DNA from: an uncultured Planctomycetaceae bacterium
GTDB taxonomy: Bacteria > Planctomycetota > Phycisphaerae > SM23-33
Assembly: GCA_964631565.1 (NCBI GenBank)
Contig: CAZVYJ010000001.1
Span: 12,705 to 76,704 of the forward strand
Length of the DNA: 64,000 nt
Direction: 5' to 3'
Shown here: positions 456 to 17,206 of the stretch, piece by piece
How positions within the stretch are numbered: the first letter of the stretch is position 1
Layout: every line of letters starts with the position of its first letter
Made by a program: the position numbers and the translations under genes
Notes under the pieces: model-generated
What the model saw: only the letters and a program-made list of their open reading frames with translations
The model's database searches: none
Told to the model about the DNA's origin: nothing

Positions 456-2756
456 ATGTTGAGTCAAAAACGCGGAAAAAACGTCGCCCTGGCGGGCGGG
501 TTGTTCCAGATGATCTTCACTGCGGTGATGATAGCGGTCTGGCGGTACACCGGGTCGATATCGGCAATGTGCACGGCCTGGCTGCTCGCGGGCGGCGTTC
601 TGCTTTGGCTGATTGTTGCGGTGCTGTTCTACTTCAATGAACTTGCCCGCCGCGAAGAGCTGGAGCTTGAGGAAATCCAGTCCGGGCGGGGCGGGCACGG
701 CCCGACGATTTTCGAGGGCGAAGAAGGCGCCGAGATGCGGCACGCCATCCGCCGGGCCGACTGGATGAACAAGTGGGCCGTCCCGTTCGCCACGCTGCTT
801 CTGGCGTTCTGCCAGGCCGCCATAGCCGTAATCTCCATGCGGTTCCTGTTCACGCAGAGCGCTCCGGTCATTACGGAAATCGGACCGGCATCGCTTTTCC
901 TCGGTCTGACGGCGTTCCTGGCGTTTCTGTTCAGCCGCTACGCCACGGGCATGGGCGGTTCGAGCCAGTGGCGGTTTCTGCGGGCGACCGGCGGATACCT
1001 GCTGGTCTGCGTGATTTTCATCGCCGCCGTCGTGCTGTCGCTGCTGATGGCGGGGCAGGGATACGGCAACGTGGACCTCATCGTCGCATACGCCGTATGC
1101 ATCGTTCAGCTTGTGCTCGCCGTCGAGCTTACGCTTAATTTCGTACTCGACCTCTACCGCCCGCGGATTCCGGGCAAGGAATATCATCCGAGTTTCGAGA
1201 GCCGCGTGTTCAGCATTCTCGCCGAGCCGGACCGCGTCGGGCATTCAATCGCCGACACGCTGAATTACCAGTTCGGCTTCGAGGTTTCGCGAACGTGGTT
1301 TTACAGGCTGGTTTCCAAGGCGTTCGTGCCGCTGCTGATACTGGCCGTCCTGATAATGTTCGCCATGAGCAGCGTTGTGCTGGTCCAGCAGGGCCAGCAA
1401 TGCGTCGTCACCAGCCTGGGCCGTCTCCAGGAGCCGGCGCTGGGGCCCGGCCTGCACTTCAAGCTGCCCTGGCCTTTCGCCACGGAGAAACGATTCAACA
1501 CCGATGAGATTCACGAAATCATACTCGGCGTCGGCGAGGCCCGCGAGCCGACGATAATCAAGGGCCGCGAGCTTTACCTCTGGACCGAGGAGCACGGCAG
1601 CAGGCAGGAGCGTGATTTCCTTGTCGCCATCCAGCCGCCAAAGGACTGGAGCGAGCCTGGCGAAAACGCCAATGCCGACAAGGTGAAAACCCCGCCGGTG
1701 GCCATGATCAAGCTGGTTGTGGTCGTGTATTACAAAATCGCTGATGTGCGGGATTACGGCTACAACTACAAGGATTCACATTCGGTTCTCGAGTCCCTGG
1801 CGTATCGCGAAATGACGCGCTACTACGCCAGCGCCACGCTGATGGACCCTATTCGCGACAAGACGTCCGGCGGCAAGGACAGGCCTGAGGCGATAATGAC
1901 GTTCGGCCGCCAGAAAGCCGCGGACAATCTCCGCAGGCTTATTCAGGCCAGGGCCGATGACATGAAGCTTGGCGTAACCATAACGCACGTCGGGATAATT
2001 TCGTCGCATCCGCCCGCCAAGGCTGCGCCGGCCTTCGAAAATGTCGCCAAGGCCGAGCGCGCCCGCGATTCAAAACGTTACGAAGCCGAGGCCGAGGCGA
2101 GCTACATGCTCGCCGGCGTCGCCGGCGACGTGGGCGAGGCGCTGCGGCTGGCCCAGGAGATAACAAAGCTCGAACAGCTTACCGACCTCTCGCGTGCCGA
2201 CGCAGCCGATGTGGGTGCGCTGGTCGATAAATACATCGCGCAGACGCAGGAGGATATAGGCCTGCTCGACAAGGAAATCGAGCGCGAGCGTATTTTGGGG
2301 CGGACCGCATCAAGCAAGATATGGCAGGACAACCAGGCCCTGCGCAAAAAGTCGGTCGCGTACCTGGATGTCCTGAAGCAGATAAAGGCGAACCCAGCCG
2401 GCTTCAACTTCACAGCCGCCGTCGAGGAGTCACAAAAGCACGCCGAGGACATGCTTGACCGCGCACGCGGTGAGCCGGCGAAACTCATCGCTGAGGCCGA
2501 GGCGGAACGCTGGCAGAAAGAACTCGGCGAGCGGGCACGGGCAGAAACGTTCTCCAGGCACCTGCTGGCGTACCGGGCCAGCCCGGACATGTACATTCTC
2601 GACCGCTGGCTCGATACATGGGACGAAGTGCTCAAAAGAGCCGCCAGCAAGCAGGTCATCGCAGTCGATCCCAACAAGGTCGAGCTCTGGCTGGACTGGA
2701 AATGGAAATCCGACCTGATGCAGGGCGTCACTTTCGAGAAAGAAAAGAAGGAATAA
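456..2756 (+). CDS. SPFH/band-7 (HflK/HflC-like) domain protein fused to an N-terminal ~8-TM domain and a long C-terminal coiled-coil region
   Basis: ATG at 456 after gaggtcc. Residues 1-290 are multi-TM. Central VVTSLGRLQEPALGPGLHFKLPWPFATEK...IHEI is the HflK/HflC SPFH signature. The C-terminus is charged and helix-rich. Confidence 0.7.
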   Translation: MLSQKRGKNVALAGGLFQMIFTAVMIAVWRYTGSISAMCTAWLLAGGVLLWLIVAVLFYFNELARREELELEEIQSGRGGHGPTIFEGEEGAEMRHAIRRADWMNKWAVPFATLLLAFCQAAIAVISMRFLFTQSAPVITEIGPASLFLGLTAFLAFLFSRYATGMGGSSQWRFLRATGGYLLVCVIFIAAVVLSLLMAGQGYGNVDLIVAYAVCIVQLVLAVELTLNFVLDLYRPRIPGKEYHPSFESRVFSILAEPDRVGHSIADTLNYQFGFEVSRTWFYRLVSKAFVPLLILAVLIMFAMSSVVLVQQGQQCVVTSLGRLQEPALGPGLHFKLPWPFATEKRFNTDEIHEIILGVGEAREPTIIKGRELYLWTEEHGSRQERDFLVAIQPPKDWSEPGENANADKVKTPPVAMIKLVVVVYYKIADVRDYGYNYKDSHSVLESLAYREMTRYYASATLMDPIRDKTSGGKDRPEAIMTFGRQKAADNLRRLIQARADDMKLGVTITHVGIISSHPPAKAAPAFENVAKAERARDSKRYEAEAEASYMLAGVAGDVGEALRLAQEITKLEQLTDLSRADAADVGALVDKYIAQTQEDIGLLDKEIERERILGRTASSKIWQDNQALRKKSVAYLDVLKQIKANPAGFNFTAAVEESQKHAEDMLDRARGEPAKLIAEAEAERWQKELGERARAETFSRHLLAYRASPDMYILDRWLDTWDEVLKRAASKQVIAVDPNKVELWLDWKWKSDLMQGVTFEKEKKE

Positions 2757-2814
2757 CTGGTAGAAATTCTCAGACATTGGAATCAACAAGGTCTGAATAC
2801 CGAGGAATACGGAC

Positions 2815-3777
2815 ATGAACAAACATATAGGATTGGTGATACTGGCTTCTCTGGTCATGTTGCTGCTGCTGGCTTATACGGTCACGTTCGTGGTCGATCA
2901 GCCCAGCGACATAATAGTGCTGACTACATTCGGGCAGGCCAGCGCAAGCGATGTATACGAGGGTGCGGAGGGGGCCGGCTGGCACTTGAAGTGGCCGTAC
3001 CCGATACAGCGTGCAGTGCGCCTGGAGAAACGCCGCATTCGCGTTTACGACCCCAACGACGCGGTCTACACGTCGGACGGGCAGGAGCTTGTCGTCAGCG
3101 CGTTCTGCATATGGGAAATAGACAAGCCGGTCGACTTCCTCTCCAACATCAAATCGGAAGCCGCCGCGTCTGAGCGCATCAGCAACCTGCTCCGCAGCAG
3201 CAAGAAGGAAATCTTCTCCAGCCGCAGCATGTCGCAGATCGTCAATACCGATCCGGACATGATGAAGCTTGGCGACATTGAGAACGAGATAGCGACCCGG
3301 CTGAAATCCTTCGTTGATGATGAAAAGTACGGCGTCAGGATCGTGCAGGTCGGAATCGAGAGAATGACGCTCACCACGGCGATAACCGAACAGGTTATCG
3401 AAACCATGAAGAAGGAACGCGAGCAGTTCGCCAAGACCTACGAGACCGAAGGCGATGCTGAGGCGACAGCGATAAAATCCCGCGCCGAGAGCGCCCGCAA
3501 GCGGATAATCGCGTTTGCCGAGCGCCACGCCAGGGACATCCGGGCCGAAGGCGAGCGGGCCGCCGCACGCGAATACAGCAAGTTCGAGGAATTCCCGCAG
3601 TTGAGCATGTTCCTGCGATACATAGACACGCTTAAGGCCGGGCTGAAAGACAACACGACGATTTTCCTGGACGGCTCGAAGATAGAGGCGATCGGCTGGT
3701 TCCGGGAAGGGGCGTCGCTGCCAAAAGGCCCGCCGATAAAGCTCGATGAAAAGGCCGGCGCCGGCGACAAGAAGTAG
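2815..3777 (+). CDS. HflC-like SPFH/band-7 membrane protein
   Basis: N-terminal TM anchor. VVDQPSDIIVLTTFGQ... and FLRYIDTLKAGLKDNTTIFL resemble the HflC C-terminal motif. 58-nt gap to the upstream gene, same strand. Confidence 0.7.
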   Translation: MNKHIGLVILASLVMLLLLAYTVTFVVDQPSDIIVLTTFGQASASDVYEGAEGAGWHLKWPYPIQRAVRLEKRRIRVYDPNDAVYTSDGQELVVSAFCIWEIDKPVDFLSNIKSEAAASERISNLLRSSKKEIFSSRSMSQIVNTDPDMMKLGDIENEIATRLKSFVDDEKYGVRIVQVGIERMTLTTAITEQVIETMKKEREQFAKTYETEGDAEATAIKSRAESARKRIIAFAERHARDIRAEGERAAAREYSKFEEFPQLSMFLRYIDTLKAGLKDNTTIFLDGSKIEAIGWFREGASLPKGPPIKLDEKAGAGDKK

Positions 3778-3804
3778 GACCTGGAATATCCGGAGACAGC
3801 TGAC

Positions 3805-5121
3805 ATGGCTGAAAAAATACATAATCATGACAACTGCCCGCACGGCCGCCATCATCGCGACGATGGGTACGAGCCTGTGATTCAGGACGCCGCCTCGCAA
3901 AGCCTCGCCAAGGCGCTGAAAGCGAGCTTCAGGCTGCTTTCGCTGATAATGATTCTCATTATGGCGGCGTTCCTCGCGACCGGCCTGAAGACCATAAAGC
4001 AGAATCAGCGGGGCATAATCAAGATGTTCGGCCGGGTCGTTGGGGAGGTAGGCCCGGGCCTGGCGCACGCCTGGCCGTTCCCGATAGGCGAGATAGACGT
4101 CGTCGATGTAAGCGTGCAGAAGTTTGAGATGGACGATTTCTGGATTAACGAGACGGCCAAGGATCTCGCCACGCCGTGGGAGCAGAGAACGGCCTACAGG
4201 GGCGGGCTTAAGCCCGGCCTGGACGGCATGCTCATTACCGGCGACAGGGCGATACTGCACATGAAACTGGCATGTTCGTACCAGGTGAGTGAGCCGATAA
4301 AGTTCCGCGAAAGCATGGTCGACCCAGAGGCGACCGTCCGGTCGGTGATATGCTCCGCCGCGATCAAGGCCGTCGCGCATCGAACCGCCAGCGCCATAAT
4401 GACCGGCGAGTCGACCGCGCTTGTGAACGAAATCAAGAAAAACGCGAACGACGCCCTCGGCGAAGGCGGCCTGGACTGCGGAATAGTCCTGACGACGCTC
4501 AGTCTGCCGCAGCACAGCCCGACCTGGCCTCTGGGCGCCAAAGCCGCCTTCGACAAGGCGCAGAACGCGACCAACGTTCGTGAAGGCAAAATCAAGGACG
4601 CCTACGGCGAGGCGAAAACCATACTGCAACAGGCTGCCGGCAATGCGTATAAAGAGCTTGTCGGTTCGTTCGAACCTACGGAGGAGAAACCCACGGGGGT
4701 TCCGCTTATAGTGGCCTACGAGAAGGCCCGCGAAAATGGTAACGACGAGGAAGCCGCCATATACCTTGAGAAAATCAACAATATTCTCCTCAGTGGAGAA
4801 ACTGGCGGTGAGGCCAAGAGCATCATCGAGGACGCGAAGGCGTACAGGACGGGCATCGTCCAGGCCGTCCAGGGCCGCGCCGAAAAATTCGAAAAGCTCC
4901 TACCCGAATTCCGCAAATATCCCGACCTGATGGTGCAGAGGCTCTGGGCCGAGACCGTTGAGGAGATACTCAGCTCGCCCACGGTCGAAAAAATCATCAT
5001 CCGCGTCGGCGACCAGGTGATAAATATCCAGGCGAACCAGCCTCCGGCCGTCGCACGAAAAATGCTGGAAGAGGCGATTAAAAAGAGCAAAGAGCAGAAT
5101 AAAAAGGAAGGCGAGAAATAA
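3805..5121 (+). CDS. HflK-like SPFH/band-7 membrane protein
   Basis: RBS ggagacagctgac before ATG. TM anchor followed by IIKMFGRVVGEVGPGLAHAWPFPIGEIDVVDVSVQ (HflK-type SPFH), then a long charged tail. Confidence 0.7.
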   Translation: MAEKIHNHDNCPHGRHHRDDGYEPVIQDAASQSLAKALKASFRLLSLIMILIMAAFLATGLKTIKQNQRGIIKMFGRVVGEVGPGLAHAWPFPIGEIDVVDVSVQKFEMDDFWINETAKDLATPWEQRTAYRGGLKPGLDGMLITGDRAILHMKLACSYQVSEPIKFRESMVDPEATVRSVICSAAIKAVAHRTASAIMTGESTALVNEIKKNANDALGEGGLDCGIVLTTLSLPQHSPTWPLGAKAAFDKAQNATNVREGKIKDAYGEAKTILQQAAGNAYKELVGSFEPTEEKPTGVPLIVAYEKARENGNDEEAAIYLEKINNILLSGETGGEAKSIIEDAKAYRTGIVQAVQGRAEKFEKLLPEFRKYPDLMVQRLWAETVEEILSSPTVEKIIIRVGDQVINIQANQPPAVARKMLEEAIKKSKEQNKKEGEK

Positions 5122-5158
5122 TTCGAAATAACCGTTCGACTCGCCGGAATTCAACGAT

Positions 5159-6364
5159 ATGGCCGAAAGCTATGACAACGTGGTTGTCGTCAAAAGACTG
5201 ACGAAGGTTTTTCGCGACTTCTGGCTGCGCGAGAAGGTGACTGCCGTCGCCGACCTCGACCTGGAAATCCGCTCGAAGGAAGTGTTCGGCCTGCTGGGGC
5301 CTAACGGCTCCGGCAAGAGCACCACGCTGAAGATGGTCCTCGGCCTGCTGTTTCCGACTCGCGGCGTGATATCGGTGTTCGGCAAGCGCCCGACCGACGT
5401 CGGCACGAAGGCCCGCATCGGCTATCTGCCGGAGGAATCGTATCTTTATCCGTTCCTCAACGCCGTCGAGACGCTGGACTTTTACGGGCGCCTGTTTCAC
5501 CAGTCGCGGCACATCCGCAAGGGCAGAATCGAGATGCTCCTGGACATGGTCGGCCTTGCCGCCGTGGCGTACCGCCGCGTAGGCGAGTATTCCAAGGGCA
5601 TGCAGCGGCGCATCGGTCTGGCACAGGCGCTGATAAACGACCCGGACCTGCTCATACTCGACGAGCCGACTGCCGGAATGGACCCCATCGGCACGCGGCA
5701 GATAAAAGACCTCATCGGCGAGCTGGCGAAGCGCGGCAAGACTGTCATTTTGTCCAGCCACCTGCTCGCCGACGTGGAAGACGTGTGCGACCGCGTGTGC
5801 ATTCTTTACGGCGGCCGGCAGCGGCGGCTTGGAAGCATCGACGAACTGCTCGCCCGCCGCACACAGACGCAGATAACCATCGACGACCTTGACCCAGCGA
5901 CGCTCGCCGAAGTTCGGCAGCTGCTTGAAAAGGCCGGCAAGGAAGCCGAAATCACCACGCCTCGCGACAGGCTCGAGTCGCTCTTCCTGCGGATTGTCCG
6001 CGAGGCGAAAGAGAAAAAACTCGCCACCGGCGGTGCTGTGTCCGGCGGGCAGGTCGCGGAATTTCTCCGGGCCGAACCGGCCGAGGGCAGCCGCGTCATT
6101 ACCGAGCTTATCACCCGCGCCGAGCCGGTCCCGGCCAACCAGCCTGCCGAGGAGCCTCAGCTCCCGCCGGCGGAAGAGCAGCCCGCACGTGACGTGCTCG
6201 ACGAACTTACCGCCGGCAAGGAGCCGCCGGCCCCGGCCGCCGAGCCGCAGCCCGAAACTCCGCCTGCTGCCGCGAAAAACGCGACACGGCAGGACGATGC
6301 CGACAGAGGCTTTATCGACGGGCTTATCGGCGGTGCCGACAAATCCAACTCGGAGGATTCATAA
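5159..6364 (+). CDS. ABC transporter ATP-binding protein with Pro/Ala/Glu-rich C-terminal extension
   Basis: Walker A GPNGSGKST, signature YSKGMQRR, Walker B LLILDEPTAGMD, H-loop SSHLL. The ~130-aa low-complexity tail (PAEEPQLPPAEEQPA...) is unusual. Confidence 0.9.
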   Translation: MAESYDNVVVVKRLTKVFRDFWLREKVTAVADLDLEIRSKEVFGLLGPNGSGKSTTLKMVLGLLFPTRGVISVFGKRPTDVGTKARIGYLPEESYLYPFLNAVETLDFYGRLFHQSRHIRKGRIEMLLDMVGLAAVAYRRVGEYSKGMQRRIGLAQALINDPDLLILDEPTAGMDPIGTRQIKDLIGELAKRGKTVILSSHLLADVEDVCDRVCILYGGRQRRLGSIDELLARRTQTQITIDDLDPATLAEVRQLLEKAGKEAEITTPRDRLESLFLRIVREAKEKKLATGGAVSGGQVAEFLRAEPAEGSRVITELITRAEPVPANQPAEEPQLPPAEEQPARDVLDELTAGKEPPAPAAEPQPETPPAAAKNATRQDDADRGFIDGLIGGADKSNSEDS

Positions 6365-6366
6365 CG

Positions 6367-8049
6367 ATGCGCAGTATATGGGCCGTCGCGAGACAGACGC
6401 TCGCTCAGTGCCTGCGCATGAAGGTGGCCGGCGTGTTCATCGTGCTGCTGGCCGTCGTGGTTACGGCGCTGCCTTTCACCCTAAAGGGCGACGGCACGCT
6501 GGCAGGGCAGATCAGGACATTCCTTTCATACAGCGTTTCAATGACGACTGTGTTGCTCACTATCGTCACCATTTTTCTGTCGGTCGGCGTGGTTTCGTCC
6601 GACGTGCAGGACAAGCAGGTGTTCCTGCTGGCCGTCAAGCCGCTGGGGAGAGGCGAATACGTGCTCGGCCGATGGCTGGGCGTGGTGGTGTTCGACGCGA
6701 TACTGATACTGGCTTCCGGCGCGATAATTTACGGACTGGCGCAGCATCTTCGCGGCGGCAAGGTCATGAACGATAACGACCGCCGCGCCGTCGAAATGGA
6801 AATATTCTCATCGCGGGCCAAAGTCAGGCCGGACTCCATCGAGGGAGATATAGAAAAAAACATCCTCGATCGAATCGGCAGGCTGAAGCAGGAAGGCAGA
6901 TACGATGCTTCGCTTGATGCGTATAAGGAGCGAACCGGCGGCGACCGTCAGGCCGCCGAGGTGATGCTGCTGGATGAAATCCGCCAGCAGGTCACTGAGG
7001 ATCTCCAGTCGGTCAAACCGGGCGAAAGCATGACGCTTGTTTTCAGCGGCATCCGGCCGCAGGGCGGCGAGGTGCACGGCAAGGGAACTGTAGGCCAGGT
7101 CGTCGAAGACAATGCGAACAAGCTCGTCTATTTCGAAATGTCGACGTCGCGGCGATTCCTTGGACAGCTCATCGCCGGCTATCCTCTGCGGATCGCGGAC
7201 CGCGACGCATGGGTCAGCGAGCTTCGCAGGGAAACCTTCGTGGGCGTCATGCATGCCGACGACGCCGAACGCATAACTTTGAAAACCGGCGAGGAAATGC
7301 AGCTCACCGCCGAGCCGGTCATACAGATAAGCTACCAGCTGAAGCCTTCACAGACCCCGCCGAACGAGCGCCAGCTTTACGGCGAATGGGAAGTCGCCGG
7401 CGGCGACATAACCAAAAAAAATGAGAATACCGAAAGCAGCGAAAGGTATCTTCCGCTGCCTCGCCGCGACCCCATCCGCGTCCAGACGACGCTCATAGCG
7501 TCGGCCAGGGTGGTCGGCAAGGACGGCAAAATATCGGTCACGTACACCAACAGGCCCGATCCCCAGACCGGCTTCGTAACCGCCGTTACGCTGGACCGCA
7601 ATGACGCCGCGGTTCTCTACCGCATCGGCTCGTTCGAGATGAACTTTGTTCACGGGCTTATGCTGATTCTGTTCCAGATGATGTTCATGGCGGCCGTCGG
7701 CGTGATGGCCGGCACGTTTCTGTCGTTCGCCGTGGGCTGCATACTTTCGTTCGCCGTTCTGCCGTTCAGCCTCGCCCGGGCGTTTCTTTCCGATGCCGTC
7801 AGGCTGAGCGAGAGCAGGGAAAACGACGTGTGGACCGTCGGCGGGCACTACATATATAAAGTGATGGCCGCCGTTCTGCCCGACCTCGGCAGCATATCGG
7901 TGTCGGACTTCCTTGTGGACGGCGTCGCGATATCATGGTCTCTGGTCGGAACCTCGGCCCTGTGGACAATCGGCGTGCGCACGGCGCTGGTGCTCGTTGT
8001 CGCATGCCTGATATTCTACAGGCGCGAGCTTGCGAGAGTTCAGGTGTAG
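6367..8049 (+). CDS. ABC-2 family permease with large (~270 aa) extracytoplasmic loop
   Basis: ATG 2 nt after the upstream stop. Hydrophobic N-terminal helices, a long soluble insert (res ~130-400), then 4-5 C-terminal TM helices. Confidence 0.65.
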   Translation: MRSIWAVARQTLAQCLRMKVAGVFIVLLAVVVTALPFTLKGDGTLAGQIRTFLSYSVSMTTVLLTIVTIFLSVGVVSSDVQDKQVFLLAVKPLGRGEYVLGRWLGVVVFDAILILASGAIIYGLAQHLRGGKVMNDNDRRAVEMEIFSSRAKVRPDSIEGDIEKNILDRIGRLKQEGRYDASLDAYKERTGGDRQAAEVMLLDEIRQQVTEDLQSVKPGESMTLVFSGIRPQGGEVHGKGTVGQVVEDNANKLVYFEMSTSRRFLGQLIAGYPLRIADRDAWVSELRRETFVGVMHADDAERITLKTGEEMQLTAEPVIQISYQLKPSQTPPNERQLYGEWEVAGGDITKKNENTESSERYLPLPRRDPIRVQTTLIASARVVGKDGKISVTYTNRPDPQTGFVTAVTLDRNDAAVLYRIGSFEMNFVHGLMLILFQMMFMAAVGVMAGTFLSFAVGCILSFAVLPFSLARAFLSDAVRLSESRENDVWTVGGHYIYKVMAAVLPDLGSISVSDFLVDGVAISWSLVGTSALWTIGVRTALVLVVACLIFYRRELARVQV

Positions 8050-8055
8050 GAAAGT

Positions 8056-9963
8056 ATGAGTTTGCAGTCGCAGAAAATACGGTGGGTCTGGCTGGCGATT
8101 GCCGCCGCGGGCATCGCCTCGGCCGGCCTCCTGCACGCGCCGCTCGACGAGCTGAGCGAGAAATACGAACTCGAGCCAATCGACAAGGGAACCATCGAGC
8201 GATACCCGCAGCTGGCGCTTCTCCAGACTGCGCCGGGCGGCCTGCGGGCGATTGCCGTCAACTATCTCTGGATACGCTCGCAGGATTTCAAGGAGCAGGG
8301 GCGTTTCTACGATGCCATGCAGCTGGCCACCACGATATGCTACCTCCAGCCGCGATTTGAAGGCGTATGGGCGTTCAACTCGTGGAATATGGCGTGGAAT
8401 ATTTCCGTAGCCACTCACACGCCCGAGGAGCGATGGCAGTGGGTGTACAACGGCGTGAAGCTTCTGCGCGACGACGGAATACCGATGAACCGCCGCTCGC
8501 TGCTGCTGTACAAGGAGCTGGCGTGGATATTCTTCTTCAAGATGGGCCAGTATACCGACGACATGCACATGGTCTACAAGCAGCGGTGGGGCGGCGAAAT
8601 GCAGGATTTGCTGTCTTCACCGCCGTACGGCGGCACGAAGGATGTAATCGACGCCTTCCGCCCGATAGCTGCCGCCCCGCTGGACAAGGACATCAGAAGG
8701 CAGGGTCTCGAAGAGATTCAGCCGGACATGCGCGACCAACTGCTTTCCGATGCGGAACTGGCCGATTACGCCGGTAAGCTGCAGGCCGTCGGCGTCGGCG
8801 TGGACCGCTCGCTGCTCGACGCCTACAACCGCGTCAGCATGGCTCCCGATGCGTATCTGTATCGCCTGGATGTCCCTAAGCAGGAGACCGATGAGGAAAA
8901 AACGCTGTTTGAACTCATAAACGGCAGCGCCTACGCCGCACAGAGAACGAAGCTGCTTGCCTTCGTCAGGGCGCAGATTCTCTGGAACAAATACAAAATG
9001 GACCCGGCCTGGATGCTGGACCTGATGGTCCGACTGGACGCGCCGCTGGACTGGCGTCATGTCTATTCGCATTCGCTGTACTGGGTCACATACGGCATAC
9101 ACGTGTGCGACAGCCTGGGAATGTCGGACATCATCGCGCTGAATACCGACCGCATCGTTCTGAACTCGCTCAAGGAAATGACCTGGACGGGCAGGCTCAT
9201 ACTTACGCGAAATCCGCGCAACCCCGACATGCCGGACCTGCGCTGGCTGGCCGACTTCAGATTTGTCGAGCCGACACAGACGGAATATATGCGAATCATA
9301 AACGCCATAGCGTCAAGCAAGGCTGCCGACGACGAGAAAAACGATTTCGAAAGCGGGCATATAAACTATCTCGCGACCGCCATCGCGGGACTGTACGCCG
9401 ATTACCAGCGGGACGAGGCGCAGAAGTACTTCGACTGGATAAAGAGCTATTACAGGAAAACCGGCGAAGAGTGGGACATGCCGCTGGGCGATTTTGTTGC
9501 TTACCGCCTGAACAAGGAAGGCAGCCCGATTCGCGACATCGCCGACAGCCAGATAACCGCCGCCCTGAGAACGTGGCTGAGGCTCACCGCGGCCAACCAG
9601 CCGGACGAGGCCCGGCAGAGCCTGCAGTATGCCATGATGGTTTACGACATATACGCCAAAAATGTGACCGCCGACCGCATGAAGCAAGCTGAGTTTCTTT
9701 CCATATTAAGCTCCGTGGCGGCCGAGGTGCTCATCAGGCCGGAAACCCTGGGCTTCCATATACCGCTTGCTGACCGATCCAGGGTGTACAGAATGCTCAA
9801 CGAAAACGTCCAGACGCTGATTTACGACAGCATAGACATTTATCTCCGTCCGCTGTGCGATGAGCAGAATTACGATTTCGACAAGGCGTTCCCGATGCCC
9901 GAAAGTCTGAAAAAGTACCGCGAAAAACTCCATGAGAGGATAAAAGTGGAGAAGAATAAGTAA
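8056..9963 (+). CDS. hypothetical membrane-anchored protein (635 aa), operon partner of the ABC/SPFH genes
   Basis: 6-nt gap after the permease. N-terminal signal/anchor WVWLAIAAAGIASAGLL. No recognisable catalytic motif. Trp/Tyr-rich. Confidence 0.55.
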   Translation: MSLQSQKIRWVWLAIAAAGIASAGLLHAPLDELSEKYELEPIDKGTIERYPQLALLQTAPGGLRAIAVNYLWIRSQDFKEQGRFYDAMQLATTICYLQPRFEGVWAFNSWNMAWNISVATHTPEERWQWVYNGVKLLRDDGIPMNRRSLLLYKELAWIFFFKMGQYTDDMHMVYKQRWGGEMQDLLSSPPYGGTKDVIDAFRPIAAAPLDKDIRRQGLEEIQPDMRDQLLSDAELADYAGKLQAVGVGVDRSLLDAYNRVSMAPDAYLYRLDVPKQETDEEKTLFELINGSAYAAQRTKLLAFVRAQILWNKYKMDPAWMLDLMVRLDAPLDWRHVYSHSLYWVTYGIHVCDSLGMSDIIALNTDRIVLNSLKEMTWTGRLILTRNPRNPDMPDLRWLADFRFVEPTQTEYMRIINAIASSKAADDEKNDFESGHINYLATAIAGLYADYQRDEAQKYFDWIKSYYRKTGEEWDMPLGDFVAYRLNKEGSPIRDIADSQITAALRTWLRLTAANQPDEARQSLQYAMMVYDIYAKNVTADRMKQAEFLSILSSVAAEVLIRPETLGFHIPLADRSRVYRMLNENVQTLIYDSIDIYLRPLCDEQNYDFDKAFPMPESLKKYREKLHERIKVEKNK

Positions 9964-10015
9964 CTCAAATCGATCGCCCCCGAAAGGCCGGTCAGGGAAA
10001 AGATTGATTGGTTGG

Positions 10016-10055
10016 CTGGTTGATTTGTTAACCGTTTAACCGGACAATCAACCAG
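10016..10055. repeat. perfect 10-bp inverted repeat (CTGGTTGATT / AATCAACCAG) flanking a 20-nt spacer containing direct repeat TTAACCG-TTTAACCG
   Basis: Read directly: ctggttgatt tgttaaccgtttaaccggac aatcaaccag. Lies 53 nt after the stop of the 8056 gene, in a 358-nt intergenic region. Confidence 0.6.
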
Positions 10056-10321
10056 TCAGCAAATCAGTCAGTTTGGGTAGGTTGATCATCAAATCCGTCT
10101 GGTTCTTTAGATAATTATTACAGGGTTCCGGAACTTCTTCGGCAGTTGTGCGTCTTATATTCGGCTGAGCCTGATACAGGTTACTTACCGACTATAGTAA
10201 GCGTCAAAAGTCTTTTCGCGTTACCGGCAACGCCCGTCCCTGAGGGGCTGGCAAAAAACCTCACCCGGCGGAAAAAACTATTGGCAGGCATTCTAAAACT
10301 CTTGCGAAAGGAGATAATGCA

Positions 10322-11567
10322 CATGAAACTCCGAAACACCATACTGCTTCTTTTGGCCGCTTCCATTCTGGTTTTGCCGGCGGCTGCGACGGCGCGCGTG
10401 AAACTGGCGGCCCTTCCGCAGCGCGAGCGCGTCGAAATCCAGCTCGATAACGGCATGTATACGCTGGTCGAGGAAGAGCGCATCGTTCCGCTGCTCAAGT
10501 CGACGGCCGAGGCCGGAAACAACAAAATCGATTTCAGCTGGTCGAACACCCAGATCGACAAGGATTCGATCCTGTTCCGCCCGATAGCCGTCAGCGAAGA
10601 CGGCAAGTTCCGCCCGGTGAAGACCGACGGCGACAAGCCGGAGGTGAGCGTGATAAACGTCGCCTACCCGCCGGGCGAGAACGCCCTTGTGTGGGAAGTC
10701 TACGCAGCCGAAGCCTGCGCCGTTAAAGTGCGGGTCAGCTACCTCATCAACAACCTGAGCCGCTCGTTCTCGTACCGCGTGCTGGCAAACAAGGACGAGA
10801 CCGTCCTGACCCTGAAAAACTACATCCAGCTCAGCAACTACTCCGGAGAGGAGTTCGGCACATCCGGCGTATGGGCTGGGTTCGGACCGTCGTTCATGAA
10901 GGAAATCGGCTACCAGGAAGACGTCAAGATGCTCATCAGGAGCTTCAAGGACGTGCCCATCGAGAAGACCTACACCTACGACTGGTACGTCAACGGGCCG
11001 CTCAACCCGGACAAGCCGTTCGCTTCCAAGGTGGTCATGCACTACAAGCTCATCAACGATGAGAAGCACAATCTGGGCGAATTCCCGCTGCAGCCCGGCA
11101 AGGCCAGGATATTCATTCAGGACGGCCGCGGCGGAGAGGCGTTCCTCGGAGAGGACTGGGCTTCGCTTACCCCGCTGGACGGCAAGATGAAGCTTTATCT
11201 CGGCGAGGCCCGCGACGTGGTCTGCACGCGGACGATCCAGGATAACAAGCGACACGAAGTCCGCGGCAACCTGTTCAACCAGGAAATCACCATCAAGTAC
11301 GAAATCGAGAACTTCAAGGACAAGCCGGTCACTCTCGACATCATCGAGCGGATGAACAACATCGCCCAGCAGTACGGCAGCGACCCGCACGGCGACGCGG
11401 AGTGGACGGTCGGCGACAACACCTCCAAGAACATCAAGTTCGACTATGAATACGGCGGCGCGACGCCTACGCTGAAGGTCGAGCTGCCGGCCCGGCCGAA
11501 AAACCCGGATGAAAAAGTCCAGAAACTCACGTTCACGTTCCACTTCACCATAAAGAACCTCTGGTAA
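10322..11567 (+). CDS. secreted hypothetical protein, paralog 1 of tandem triplet
   Basis: aaggag RBS 10 nt before ATG at 10322 (ORF-track start 10146 rejected). Signal peptide MKLRNTILLLLAASILVLPAAATA. Shares architecture and motifs (IDFSWSNTQIDKDSILFRP...) with the next two genes at ~35% identity. Confidence 0.65.
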
Positions 11568-11593
11568 GCGGCAGGGAAGAAAGGAGAAATGTC

Positions 11594-12946
11594 ATGAAAC
11601 GCAATGCGATTATGATGACGCTGCTTCTGGCCGCCCTTGCCGCCACGGCGCCGGCCGAGAACGTGGACCTGGTCACGCTGCCCAGCCGCGACACGGTGCA
11701 GCTGACCATCTACAACTCCGAGGACATCACGCTGGTCAAGGAGACACGCAACGTCACGCTGAAAAAAGGCTCCAACAAGATTCAATTTTCGTGGGCAGGC
11801 ACGCTTATCGATCCCACGAGCGTGGAATTCCGCCCGCTGACGCATGTTGATGAAATTGAATTGTCCGACACCGTATTCCCCGGCCAGAAGCCCCAGCACT
11901 TAATCTGGAATATCGACTCCAAGTTTGAGGGCGAAGTGAAGGTCGAGGTCAGCTACTTCACCAGCGGCCTGACATGGACGATGGACTACGTCGCCACCTG
12001 CGACCCGGCCGAGGAGAAGATGCAGCTTCGCGGCTATGTTCGCGTATTCAATAATTCCGGCGAGGAATACGAGAACGCCGAGGTGCATCTGATTGTCGGC
12101 ACGATAAACCTCGTCGAGAAGATAGCCGACCTCGCCCGCCGCCAGGGCATACAAGTACCACAGCGGGGCACGGCAGAGCATGAAAGGTTGAGAAAACAGG
12201 TCACATTGGAGGCTGCGGACAAGGCTGAAGAGGTTGCATTTGCGGCGCCTGCTGCCTCAATGCCGCCGAAGATAGTCAAGGAAGGCCTGAGCGAGTACTT
12301 CATGTTCTCCATAGAAGGCACGGAGACTATTCCCGACGGCTGGTCGAAACGCATGGAAGCCGTAAAGGCCGACGACGCCAAGTTCGAAATACTTTACCGC
12401 ATGCGGGACTTCCAGTACGGTCCGCGGCCGGTGCGATTCTTCATCTGGCGGAACGACGATGAGCACAAGCTCGGCGAGTCGCCGCTGCCTGACGGCCGCG
12501 TGCGCATCTTCCGCGAAAACGGCAAGGACGGCCTGAGTTTCCTCGGTGAGCAGCAGATCCGCTACGTGCCGATAAAGGCTGAGATTGAAGTCAACCTCGG
12601 CGCTGACGACCTTGTCGTCTACGAGACTCGCAAGATGTCCTCAGAGCGGCTGAACTTCCACTTCCACTGGGTTGATAATCACGAGTACGTGGACGGCTGG
12701 GACGAGAAATGCCAGTGGCTGGACACCGTCCGCAACTACCGCACCAAGCCGATAAAGTTCGAGCTTCGCCGCCGCTGGCTTGGCGATGTCGATTACACGT
12801 CTGAAGTCGCGACGACGCTGTTCGACTTCAACACGATAGAGACGACCATCGACATCGGCGCCCGCGACAAGAAAGACTATCCCTGCACGGTAATCACACA
12901 CTACGGCACCAACAAGAAGCAGGAACAGATAAGGATAGGCAAATGA
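11594..12946 (+). CDS. secreted hypothetical protein, paralog 2
   Basis: aaggagaaatgtc ATG. Signal peptide MKRNAIMMTLLLAALAATAPA. ~93% nt identity to paralog 3 apart from a replaced central cassette. Confidence 0.75.
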   Translation: MKRNAIMMTLLLAALAATAPAENVDLVTLPSRDTVQLTIYNSEDITLVKETRNVTLKKGSNKIQFSWAGTLIDPTSVEFRPLTHVDEIELSDTVFPGQKPQHLIWNIDSKFEGEVKVEVSYFTSGLTWTMDYVATCDPAEEKMQLRGYVRVFNNSGEEYENAEVHLIVGTINLVEKIADLARRQGIQVPQRGTAEHERLRKQVTLEAADKAEEVAFAAPAASMPPKIVKEGLSEYFMFSIEGTETIPDGWSKRMEAVKADDAKFEILYRMRDFQYGPRPVRFFIWRNDDEHKLGESPLPDGRVRIFRENGKDGLSFLGEQQIRYVPIKAEIEVNLGADDLVVYETRKMSSERLNFHFHWVDNHEYVDGWDEKCQWLDTVRNYRTKPIKFELRRRWLGDVDYTSEVATTLFDFNTIETTIDIGARDKKDYPCTVITHYGTNKKQEQIRIGK

Positions 12947-14304
12947 AAACGCAGATATGGATTACATCCGTGCTGCTCCTGACCGCCCTCGCCGCAGCGA
13001 CGCATGCCGCGAACGTGGACCTGGTCACGCTGCCCAGCCGCGACACGGTGCAACTGACCATCTACAACTCCGAGGATATTACGCTGGTCAAGGAGACACG
13101 CAATATCACGCTGAAGAAGGGCATGAATAAAATTCAGTTTTCATGGGCAGGCACGCTTATTGACCCGACGAGTGTGGAGTTCCGCCCGCTGACGCATGTT
13201 GATGAAATTGAATTGGCGGATACCGTATTTCCCGGCCAGAAGCCCCAGCACCTGATATGGAACATCGACTCGAAGTTTGAGGGTGAGGTGAAGGTTGAAG
13301 TGAGCTACTTCACCAGCGGCCTGACATGGACGATGGACTACGTCGCCACCTGCGACCCGGCCGAGGAGAAGATGCAGCTTCGCGGCTATGTTCGCGTGTT
13401 CAACAATTCCGGCGAGGAATACGAGAACGCCGAAGTCCGTCTTATTGTCGGCACGATAAATCTCGTCGAGAAGATAGCCGACCTCGCTCGCCGCAAGGGA
13501 ATACCCGTACCTCTTGAAGACAGTAAAGATTATAACGAAATGAAGAGAGGCGCCATAACAAAGAGCATCACCAGGTCAGAACGGGAATTCGATGGCGACA
13601 TGATTGAGGGAAAAAAGCCGCATGGGATAGTCAAGGAAGGCCTGAGCGAGTACTTCATGTTCTCGATAGAGGGCACGGAGACCATCCCCAACGGCTGGTC
13701 GAAACGCATGCAGGCGGTGAAGGCCGACGACGCGAAGTTCGACATACTTTACCGCATGCGTGACTTCCAGTACGGCCCGCGGCCGGTACGTTTCTTCATC
13801 TGGCGCAACGATGAGGAGCACAAGCTCGGCGAGTCGCCTCTGCCTGACGGCCGCGTACGCATCTTCCGCGAAAACGGCAAGGACGGCCTGAGCTTCCTCG
13901 GCGAGCAGCAGATACGCTACGTGCCGATAAAGGCTGAGATTGAAGTCAACCTCGGCGCTGACGACCTTGTCGTCTACGAGACCCGCAAGATGTCCTCTGA
14001 GCGGCTGAACTTCCACTTCCGATGGTCGGGCAGCAGGGAATGCGTGGACGGCTGGGACGAGAAATGCGCCTGGCTGGACACGGTCCGCAACTACCGCACC
14101 AAGCCGATAAGATTCGAGCTTCGCCGCCGCTGGCTTGGCGATGTCGATTACACGTCCGAAGTGACGACGACGCTGTTCGACTTCAACACGATTCAGACGA
14201 CCATCGACATCGGCGCCCGCGACAAGAAGGATTACCCCTGCACGGTGGTCACTCATTATGGAGTCAACAGCAAGCAGAACAGGATAAATCTCAGGAAAGA
14301 TTGA
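12943..14304 (+). CDS. secreted hypothetical protein, paralog 3
   Basis: ATGA overlap with the stop of paralog 2. Signal peptide [22 protein letters not shown]. Near-identical to paralog 2 outside 13494-13628. Confidence 0.75.
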
Positions 14305-14737
14305 TGGCGTCAGGCAGTGTTTCGACGAATGCGCGTATTTCGTCCCTGACGCGGCGGTAACAATTGAGAATCTCTTCTTCACTGTCGGCGGACTCAGCCA
14401 GCTTTGGGGGGTCGTCGAAGCCGACGTGAATCACGCGAACGCTGCCCGGGAAAACCGGGCAGTGCTCGTTTGCATGTCCGCACAATGTCACCACGCAGTC
14501 GAATTTCACGCCGGCCAGCTCGTCGACGTGCTTGGACCGCTGGGCCGATATGTCCACGCCCGCCTCGGCCATCACCTTCACCGCCCGCCCGTTCATGCCG
14601 TGCGTCTCGATGCCGGCCGAGTACGCCTCCAGGCAGTCGCCCTTGAGCTTCCTCGCCCAGCCCTCGGCCATCTGGCTGCGGCAGGAGTTGCCTGTGCAGA
14701 GAAACAGGATTTTCGTTTTTTTCTTACGTTCATTCAT
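14291..14737 (-). CDS. arsC: arsenate reductase, thioredoxin-coupled LMW-PTP family
   Basis: [27 protein letters not shown] (CX5R P-loop) and [15 protein letters not shown] (second/third Cys). ORF-track start at 14800 overlaps arsM, so the internal ATG is used; ATG at 14755 is an alternative. Confidence 0.85.
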
Positions 14738-14756
14738 CAGTTCACCACGAGTCATG

Positions 14757-15518
14757 CTATCGCAATGCCAGCACGGTAATGGAGGCGGCTGCGCCGGCAT
14801 TCGGGGCGGTTATCGGATCATCACAGGAATTGGACGCCTTGTAGGTATGGTCGCTGAGTATTTCCATTTTATCGAAGCCGGCGTCGCGGATAGCCTGCAG
14901 ATACTCATCCCGCAGCATCGCGCCGGCGATGCAGGCGGCGTAGAGGTCGGCGTCATTGTGGGCCGACTCCGGCAGCGGCCGGTTCAGCACGATGTCGCTG
15001 ACGATCATCCGCCCGCCGGGCTTCAGCACGCGGTAGACCTCACGGAATACCTGCGGTTTGTCCGGCGAGAGGTTGATGACGCAGTTGGAGATCACCACGT
15101 CCACGGAGGCGTCATCCACAGGCAGGTGCTCGATATGTCCTTCCCGGAACTCGACGTTGGCCAGACCAGTTGTCGTGAAGAACCTGACGGCATTTTTGCG
15201 GGCCAGTTCAAGCATCTCCGGTGTCATGTCCACGCCAATCGCCCGGCCTTCGTCGCCGACCTTATGGGCGGCCAGGAATACGTCCTTGCCTGCTCCGCTG
15301 CCGAGGTCCAGCACCACGTCGCCCTTGTTGATGTACCCGAACGCCAGCGGATTGCCGCACGACAGGCCCAGCTCCGACTCGGGCACGGGATGGTCGCTCA
15401 CGGTGTAGGCCTTGTCGTCGCAGCAGCAGGAGCTTTTCGAATCGCAGCATGAGGATTGCTTGCGGGCGACTTCGCCGTAAGCCTTCCGGACCAGTTCATG
15501 CGTTTTGTTTTTGGACAT
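14757..15518 (-). CDS. arsM: arsenite S-adenosylmethionine methyltransferase
   Basis: SAM motif [13 protein letters not shown]. Cys-rich N-terminus [23 protein letters not shown]. Typical ArsM length. Confidence 0.85.
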
Positions 15519-15541
15519 ATACGCTTACCTTCACTTTCGGA

Positions 15542-16750
<1,209 letters not shown>

Positions 16751-16834
16751 ATCGCCAACCTTTCCTCTTCAGTGCGTCGGGAGTCGCCGGTGCGGAGAAA
16801 TCGGGATTTTAAACTTATCGCTCATGGTTTTTCC

Positions 16835-17206
16835 TCAGCAGGTTTTGTAATGCCTGCACAGTTCTTTGCGTGTCATCTTCCGGACGCATTTGAGTTTTTT
16901 GGCGTCTTCGCGAACGCGGCTGTCCTTGGCCAAGCATTCAATCGCCGCCGCCAAGATGGCGCGTACGCAAGGCGGGTCCGGTTTCTCGGTCAGGCTATAG
17001 TAAATCCACCGGCCGTCCTTGCGTGTTTCGACCAGGCCCGCCTGGTGCAGAATGGCCATATGCTTCGAGACAGTCGAGGGGGCCAGCTCCAGCAGCTCGA
17101 TGATCTGGCAGACGCACAGCTCACCGCCCGTAAGGGCCATCAAAGCCCGCACGCGGCCTTCGTCCGACAATGCTTTGGTGACAGTCAGAAACTCTCGCAC
17201 TTTCAT
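16835..17206 (-). CDS. arsR: ArsR/SmtB family metalloregulatory repressor
   Basis: wHTH domain with ELCVCQI metal(loid)-binding motif. RBS cggaga. First gene of arsR-acr3-arsM-arsC. Confidence 0.85.
   Translation of the reverse strand: MKVREFLTVTKALSDEGRVRALMALTGGELCVCQIIELLELAPSTVSKHMAILHQAGLVETRKDGRWIYYSLTEKPDPPCVRAILAAAIECLAKDSRVREDAKKLKCVRKMTRKELCRHYKTC

Follow-up and report, generated by a model that had tools for sequence, protein, structure and literature searches.

How can two neighbouring genes be nearly identical over most of their length and yet share nothing in the middle? The question is raised by three same-strand genes, here called copies 1, 2, and 3 (Table 1), on contig CAZVYJ010000001.1 of an uncultured planctomycete, within a stretch of 64 kb that was analysed as a whole (“the window”). 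An earlier note on this DNA described them as a tandem triplication of a secreted protein in which the two youngest copies carry a swapped internal cassette, arising by cassette exchange or strong diversifying selection. Our analysis leads to a different description: copy 1 is a type-A gene and copies 2 and 3 are type-B genes, together forming one instance of an A-B(n) array. The explanation that we favour, with moderate confidence, is that the scaffold of the B genes is under purifying selection and homogenised by recurrent conversion within the array, and that the centre escapes this process and drifts approximately neutrally.

Near-identical flanks and unrelated centres in copies 2 and 3

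Outside a central block of ~130 nucleotides and a second patch of ~24 nucleotides, copies 2 and 3 are 91.9% identical in the nucleotide alignment, essentially the ~93% estimated previously. The central blocks are about 37–42% identical, which is the random level, and the segment without similarity, first placed at 12144-12270 and 13494-13628, requires only a slight refinement of its limits (Table 1). The local-alignment score of the two blocks is below the mean of shuffled sequences on both strands, and inversion was accordingly rejected as the origin of the block. A frameshift was also rejected, since similarity is not restored in any alternative reading frame. For the encoded proteins, amino acid identity is 0.96 in the flanks and 0.10 in the centre. 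A second difference near the C-terminus, HWVDNHEY versus RWSGSREC, was likewise found as described, and it lies in a region that is variable and indel-bearing across the family. Further differences between the two copies are found in the signal peptides and in the last ~12 residues.

The flanks have a synonymous divergence (dS) of 0.37 and a nonsynonymous divergence (dN) of 0.02 (dN/dS 0.05), and the dS of the signal-peptide region (~0.45) is similar. In the centre, 64 of 108 aligned nucleotides (59%) differ, whereas 29% would be expected from the dS of the flanks (binomial P = 7e-11). The divergence of the centre therefore exceeds the age of the flanks, and the centre is either older than the flanks or has been replaced. 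The claims that the central divergence is exceptional and that it is decoupled from the rest of the gene thus stand, whereas the description of copies 2 and 3 as the “two youngest copies” does not: at a dS of 0.37, the high identity of the flanks is mostly due to purifying selection together with homogenisation.

Probable concerted evolution of type-B arrays

The same combination of similar flanks and dissimilar centres was found in arrays of other genomes. Flank amino acid identities of 0.98, 0.96, and 0.91 are accompanied by centre identities of 0.24, 0.21, and 0.31 at loci L006, L022, and L005, with flank dS values of 0.10, 0.21, and 0.80, respectively. In these three pairs and in the window pair, the flanks are far closer within the pair than to the copies of other genomes (~0.8); the flank identity of 0.96 in the window compares with 0.79–0.80 to the nearest other genome. 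The copies of L009, L010, L012, and L013, by contrast, are not homogenised and group with their counterparts at the same array position in other genomes. A shared centre was not observed in any of the 31 within-array pairs of these loci, the highest centre identity being 0.39. Amongst pairs with a flank identity of ≥0.95, the centre identity is bimodal, with values of either 0.56–1.0 or the background level of 0.2–0.4.

A second, distant locus on the Tepidisphaeraceae chromosome that carries L022 (OY969783.1; L022:7272-10371, L025:7273-10350) contains broken fragments of B genes followed by an intact B gene, and no A-type open reading frame (ORF) was found within the 9 kb upstream of this gene (L025:1-9000). 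The amino acid identity of its flanks to the main array is 94%, and the upstream sequence is near-identical over ~40 codons, which indicates that homogenisation extends to non-coding DNA and to copies dispersed in the genome. At L006 as well as at L022/L025, homogenisation includes the signal peptide and upstream DNA.

Contigs of one tight lineage yield several arrays, with array X composed of A-alpha-beta-gamma, array Y of ...beta'-delta-epsilon-gamma', and L030 of A-alpha'-epsilon''.... The content and order of units differ between these arrays, which implies that whole units have been gained and lost. The centres of X-gamma and Y-gamma' have a nucleotide identity of 0.81, whereas other centre types are mostly 0.36–0.50 identical to each other and delta and gamma ~0.64. 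The regions on either side of the centre have other histories. In the N region, Y-gamma' is closer to its paralogue Y-delta (0.963) than to X-gamma (0.904), and in the C region, Y-epsilon and Y-delta (0.956) are closer than X-gamma and Y-gamma' (0.887), such that paralogues are more similar than positional orthologues in both. In arrays X and Y, the second patch occurs as two alleles (RRSGVREYV and NR--HNHV), and which of them a gene carries is unrelated to its centre type. In orthologous pairs, the dS values of centre and flank are about equal (0.32/0.32, 0.26/0.32, 0.34/0.32, and 0.53/0.45), whereas the same-array paralogues gamma' and delta have a centre dS of 0.41 and a flank dS of 0.13–0.21.

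Silent differences are also patchy along the genes. In permutation tests, they were clustered in the window pair (P = 0.016, window variance), L006 (P = 0.0135), and L022 (P ≤ 0.001); the patchiness in L005 was not significant. Paralogues closer than orthologues, discordant histories of segments, and clustered silent differences were thus all found. They are standard signatures of gene conversion and unequal crossing-over within an array, with a centre that is refractory to both, and the B arrays are probably undergoing concerted evolution by this route. Members of an array maintain a nearly identical scaffold, and this scaffold is younger than the centre.

Selection on the centre and the favoured explanation

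Pooled over five independent orthologous centre pairs, the ratio dN/dS (omega) of the centre is 0.88 (P = 0.59 versus 1; dS 0.316), compared with 0.065 for the flanks (dS 0.343), which is a strong difference between the substitution ratios of centre and flank (Fisher P = 6e-28). Between true orthologues, change in the centre proceeds at an approximately neutral rate. Strong diversifying selection, as proposed in the earlier note, is not indicated by the pooled value or by the one lineage in which the centre is constrained (see below).

These observations can be assembled into a mechanism. Copies 2 and 3 are two members of a tandem type-B array that follows a single type-A gene. The B proteins, which are under very strong purifying selection, are predicted to be Sec-exported and mostly beta-sandwich and to carry a helical element inserted between beta regions. 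The second helix of this element would pack on the body by means of a conserved stripe of small and hydrophobic residues, leaving the other face of the helix and a variable-length A/G/P-rich linker to point outward. The scaffold would be kept uniform by recurrent gene conversion within the array, and unequal crossing-over would add and remove whole units. Conversion tracts would stop at the centre, either because no homology is left there or because overwriting a centre is disfavoured. The centre comes to resemble a swapped cassette because change at the neutral rate saturates over time. The patch at the hairpin turn behaves as a second small segment that is exchanged independently.

Several observations weigh against this explanation or limit its reach. 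The direct evidence of conversion within the window is modest: besides the patchiness of silent differences (P = 0.016), the longest run of identical codons between copies 2 and 3 spans 28 codons (P = 0.10). The signal region of copy 2 is closer to the first B copy of L001 (78% of nucleotides) than to copy 3 (63%), which is the reverse of the flanks, although this discordance rests on 21 codons only. The direct signal is weaker in the window because its closest relatives are only 73–75% identical; positional orthologues of the two window centres were not found, and other lineages provide the strongest evidence. Nor is the centre free of constraint in all lineages, as the first-B centre of the L005-type lineage has an omega of 0.11 (P = 3e-4). 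Neutrality with conversion of whole genes also predicts some sharing of centres, which was not seen in any of the 31 within-array pairs, and as no array has two like centres, some selection for non-redundancy remains plausible. Lastly, the copy-3 centre has the lowest GC content and departs from two near-invariant positions of the family (A211 to S and K225 to H), which leaves a small probability that it was imported from elsewhere. A resemblance between signal peptides had made copy 3 a candidate orthologue of the “last” copies of other arrays, and this failed on measurement.

The A-B(n) module across Planctomycetota

The arrangement of one type-A gene followed by type-B genes is constant in 25 genomic loci, and orthologues of copy 1 (62–75% identical) are located directly upstream of B genes in at least 20 loci. 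The module is distributed amongst the Pirellulaceae, Planctomycetaceae, Phycisphaerae, and Tepidisphaeraceae. In the window and loci L001–L036, the number of B genes varies from one (L002, L008, and L021) or two (the window, L005, L009, L010, and L022) to three (L014 and L016), four (L013; array L013:6003-13084), and six (L023; array L023:323-10440). An additional truncated B-like ORF is present in L023 at 2004-3191.

Type-A proteins lack the helical insert, as B residues ~166-229 are gapped in A (A1 alignment). The identity of copy 1 to the other copies had been put at ~35%, which is a slight overestimate: it is 26% to copy 2 in the main BLASTP alignment, and 31–37% is reached in the best local segments. 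Copy 1 is therefore not the oldest member of a triplication, since the locus is an A-B-B instance of a conserved module with variable copy number, in which copy 1 represents type A, a separate gene that diverged anciently and has orthologues of its own.

No conserved neighbour genes of the array were identified, and the SPFH, ABC, and 635-aa genes upstream in the window do not adjoin the array in other genomes. An assignment of function from genomic context was rejected on these grounds. The module was not found in the literature searched, in which the papers mentioning DUF4139 were unrelated.

Protein family and predicted structure of the variable element

At least 8000 relatives with 67–75% identity were retrieved by database search, and where the source was named, they derived from metagenome-assembled genomes of Planctomycetota. 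About half of the listed relatives have a precomputed match to Pfam DUF4139 (PF13598). The whole-protein scores for this family are 32.8 bits for copy 2, 29.5 for copy 3, and 17.2 for copy 1 (gathering cutoff 31.8), and the match covers only profile positions 1-117 of 205. Scores for the MuiA family (NCBIfam TIGR02231) are 31.8, 26.5, and 11.5 bits for copies 2, 3, and 1, respectively, below the curated cutoff of 112.6. Judged from these profile scores, the copies are at best distant relatives of DUF4139 and are not members of the MuiA family by the curated cutoff. MuiA is a periplasmic protein induced by envelope stress (PMC10418997), but as its own mechanism is unclear, no function can be transferred from it. 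The strict co-occurrence of A and B genes suggests that the A protein and the B isoforms work together, most likely as a scaffold of the periplasm or envelope.

The variable segment had been proposed to be a surface loop, which is borne out by the AlphaFold models in that the segment is predicted in both to be an exposed or flexible element. In these models, it consists of a helix followed by a low-confidence loop: helix 194-216 and then residues with a predicted local distance difference test (pLDDT) score below 50 in copy 2 (model pLDDT 79.7), and helix 195-220 and then a low-confidence loop in copy 3 (model pLDDT 82.8). According to these models, the two “cassettes” are the same structural element and differ in the exposed face and the linker. 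Amongst 160 family members, the column entropy is about 2.8–3.6 bits in the block, compared with about 0.5 in the flanks. The block nevertheless follows a loose pattern across the family, consisting of GIPVP, a helix with conserved positions, a variable-length A/G/P-rich spacer, and P-K-x-IVKEGLSE, and its boundaries are sharp and located at conserved motifs. The conserved positions form a helical stripe (L199, R200, A/V203, A/S207, F208, A211, and A214), with A211 present in 148 of the 160 sequences; outside the stripe, the column entropy of the centre exceeds 3 bits.

A Foldseek search with the copy-2 model (m7d51d3c276c9) gave OST1/ribophorin-I, which are luminal beta-sandwich subunits of oligosaccharyltransferase, as the best PDB matches (E 7.5e-5 to 8e-4, template modelling score ≤ 0.18). 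PIG-T of the glycosylphosphatidylinositol (GPI) transamidase was a lower-ranked PDB match. The model also matched proteins of giant viruses (Tupanvirus, Pithovirus, and Pandoravirus; E = 2e-17 to 1e-9), one of which is annotated as DUF4139. DUF4139-like proteins may thus have a deep fold relationship to OST1/ribophorin-I, PIG-T, and these viral proteins.

Alternative explanations

The strongest alternative, which we consider possible but less probable, is an adaptive repertoire, in which the exposed helix face and linker form a surface for specificity or recognition, or a decoy or bait, and diversifying selection keeps the centres of an array different and the scaffold uniform. The lack of shared centres in all 31 within-array pairs is in line with such a repertoire, as it extends to a flank dS of 0.10 and to loci at which the signal peptide and upstream DNA are homogenised (L006 and L022/L025). 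Arrays of four to six or more copies have a distinct centre in each copy (L013 and L023), and several centre comparisons give an omega of 1.4–2.7. Moreover, about a quarter of the centre positions are conserved, and the omega of the remainder must therefore be somewhat above the pooled 0.88; at exposed positions it may be slightly above 1. However, the pooled value does not differ from 1, and the L005-type lineage is constrained. The low GC content at third codon positions (GC3) and intergenic-like composition of the centre (see below) point to weak constraint, the linker is variable in length, A/G/P-rich, and of low model confidence, and a PADLOC search gave no matches that would link the genes to a defence system. 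The lack of shared centres need not imply selection, since conversion can be blocked by heterology alone and recombination readily removes identical tandem duplicates. A more specific form of this alternative, that the B arrays are a selected repertoire with a uniform secreted scaffold and one to six or more different helix-linker “heads”, and that selection removes the events that make two heads alike, appears doubtful to us. If true, it would represent a bacterial envelope analogue of variable-region gene families, with the heads acting as baits, decoys, or partner-recognition elements.

A true cassette replacement is unlikely. One centre, most likely that of copy 3, would have been imported into a recently duplicated gene from a silent donor or a planctomycete of lower GC content. 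The copy-3 centre has no recognisable relative, its block boundaries are sharp, and it carries the two substitutions at near-invariant positions noted above. Its base composition appears to point in the same direction: the GC content is 0.455 in the copy-3 block, 0.57 in the copy-2 block, and 0.56 in the whole copy-3 gene, which bears out the earlier remark that the copy-3 block is the AT-richer one. However, in the regions compared (12149-12271 and 13501-13626), GC3 is low in both copies, with 0.52–0.55 in the copy-2 centre and 0.49–0.50 in the copy-3 centre versus 0.77–0.80 in the flanks. Amongst all 40-codon windows in the genes of the 64-kb window (median 0.78), the two centres fall within the lowest 0.6–2%, copy 3 within the lowest 0.6%, and both are near the GC content of clean intergenic DNA (0.43–0.47). 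The dip is family-wide (L001–L025), with a mean GC3 of 0.65 in the centre versus 0.72 in the flanks (Wilcoxon P = 6e-6), and is milder than in the window. The largest dips include copies of homogenised arrays (the window and the second copy of L022) but also L003 and the first copy of L010. The AT-richer appearance can thus be explained without a foreign origin, by an intergenic-like composition at weakly constrained sites that is common to both centres. The dip is possibly caused by weaker codon selection at unimportant residues or by the lack of GC-biased conversion in a non-recombining segment.

Searches for a donor or a switch also argue against replacement and against the cassette exchange proposed in the earlier note. 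No second copy of either centre, no partial family member, and no silent cassette was found in the 64-kb window, and degenerate DNA scans of metagenome and viral collections with 11–12 residue cores of either centre, which detect near-identical centres only, gave 0 matches. Inverted repeats flanking either block were not found, and neither block is the reverse complement of the other, which is not consistent with an invertible or shufflon-type switch. Nor do the blocks fit a target of a diversity-generating retroelement, since no template repeat is present in the window and the two variants are of unequal length, with differences that involve all four bases. All members of the arrays are complete genes, each with a signal peptide of its own. 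In related arrays, centre types are stably inherited by array position, with a centre dS about equal to the flank dS, which argues against rapid switching of centres.

A recent duplication followed by divergence of an unconstrained loop in place, by point mutation only and without gene conversion, is very improbable. It would agree with the near-neutral change of the centre between orthologues and with the flank-like dS of the signal-peptide region. However, the divergence of the centre is twice the neutral expectation for the age of the flanks, the centre of L006 is unalignable at a flank dS of 0.10, and the phylogenies of flank and centre disagree in arrays X and Y. An assembly artefact, such as a chimeric or mis-joined repeat in a contig that, judging from its relatives, is probably metagenome-assembled, can be given almost no weight: near-identical tandem repeats are difficult to assemble from short reads, but the two ORFs are uninterrupted and in frame, a 119-kb NCBI contig contains copy 3, and the same architecture is present in dozens of independent assemblies, including the 6.87-Mb chromosome-level Tepidisphaeraceae assembly with L022/L025.

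Features and surroundings of the locus

The three same-strand ORFs each have a Sec-type signal peptide at the N-terminus, as read from their sequences and as the earlier note had described; only the start that it gave for copy 1 (10322) is one base out of frame (Table 1). The copy-3 protein is identical to database protein P0001.

Table 1. Coordinates of the genes and sequence features of the A-B-B array in the window.
Feature	Position	Strand	Remarks
Imperfect 24-nt inverted repeat (hairpin)	10002..10069	.	In AT-rich spacer between upstream operon and A-B-B array
Copy 1, type-A gene	10317..11567	+	416 aa; signal peptide; alternative ATG at 10323
Copy 2, type-B gene 1	11594..12946	+	450 aa; secreted; predicted multi-beta-sandwich
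Run of 95 nt, 100% identical	11951..12045	+	Counterpart in copy 3 at 13303-13397; candidate recent conversion tract
Variable centre of copy 2	12146..12273	+	aa ~186-226; exposed face of predicted amphipathic helix (H194-216) and A/P-rich linker
Second variable patch, copy 2	12665..12688	+	HWVDNHEY; predicted turn of long beta-hairpin (E341-360 / E363-381)
Copy 3, type-B gene 2	12943..14304	+	453 aa; start overlaps copy-2 stop (ATGA)
Variable centre of copy 3	13498..13631	+	aa ~187-228; same predicted structural element, unrelated sequence; GC 0.455
Second variable patch, copy 3	14020..14043	+	RWSGSREC

The C-terminal tail of copy 2 (12917-12946; ..KQEQIRIGK) does not follow the family consensus (..KQSRINLK), to which copy 3 adheres. 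The departure is located exactly where this tail overlaps the ATGA start of copy 3 and a Shine-Dalgarno-like motif (AAGGA), which suggests a constraint from dual coding and translation coupling.

Upstream, a same-strand cluster (456-9963) encodes three SPFH/Band-7 proteins, an ABC ATPase, and an ABC-2-like permease, as well as a protein of 635 aa for which no match was obtained with Pfam, NCBIfam, or PADLOC. The cluster is followed by an AT-rich spacer of ~350 nucleotides (9964-10316; GC 0.47), in which the hairpin probably separates the transcription unit of the upstream operon from the A-B-B array. Downstream, a convergent arsenic-resistance cluster on the minus strand (14291-17206) encodes an LMWPc-type ArsC, an S-adenosylmethionine-dependent (SAM) methyltransferase similar to ArsM, and an Acr3/SBF-family permease, and a small ORF within it resembles an ArsR-type regulator. 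The 3' end of copy 3 (stop codon 14302-14304) overlaps by 14 nucleotides (14291-14304) with the 3' end of the arsC-like (LMWPc) gene (14291-14800), and no terminator-like site is present between the two genes.

Comparison with known systems

In cassette-based antigenic variation, exemplified by vlsE/vls of Borrelia, msp2 of Anaplasma, and pilE/pilS of Neisseria, a conserved framework surrounds a wholly different segment with boundaries at conserved motifs, and the B genes share this appearance. Unlike these systems, the B arrays do not have a single expression site with silent truncated donors; all copies are full-length with a start codon and a signal peptide, centre types are passed on stably with their array position in related arrays, and no donors were found in the 64-kb window or in the metagenome and viral scans. 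The appearance of a swapped cassette therefore does not signal an active variation system here.

The B proteins resemble DUF4139/MuiA proteins in a weak match over beta-rich regions and in being exported. However, they are shorter than the MuiA family (model length 524), for which neither an A-B(n) module nor a hypervariable helix-linker has been described. The bait region of alpha-2-macroglobulin and other thioester-containing proteins offers a functional analogy only: the B protein has just 450 amino acids, no thioester motif or series of macroglobulin domains was detected in it, and its structural matches are generic beta-sandwiches. The A-B(n) module is a very widespread, uncharacterised, and strongly conserved secreted module of the Planctomycetota, for which an anatomy and an evolutionary mechanism are now given. 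With a homogenised scaffold and a sharply bounded segment that escapes, B arrays could serve in studies of where conversion tracts end in bacteria, and the helix-linker is the part to mutate once the function of a B protein is tested.

The opa genes of Neisseria, with their HV1 and HV2 regions, and babA/babB of Helicobacter are concerted multigene families whose variable regions escape homogenisation. Unlike opa and bab, which are dispersed in host-adapted pathogens, the B genes are tandem, co-oriented, and complete in environmental Planctomycetota. Phase-variation repeats were not seen at the B arrays, the variable segment is approximately neutral rather than under demonstrated immune selection, and the B protein is predicted to be a soluble beta-sandwich, not an outer-membrane barrel or an adhesin of known function. 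In all of these families, paralogues within a genome are closer than orthologues, segments have discordant histories, hypervariable segments are set in a homogenised framework, and copy number varies. The locus is a clean new example of this known evolutionary pattern, and not an active cassette-swapping system.

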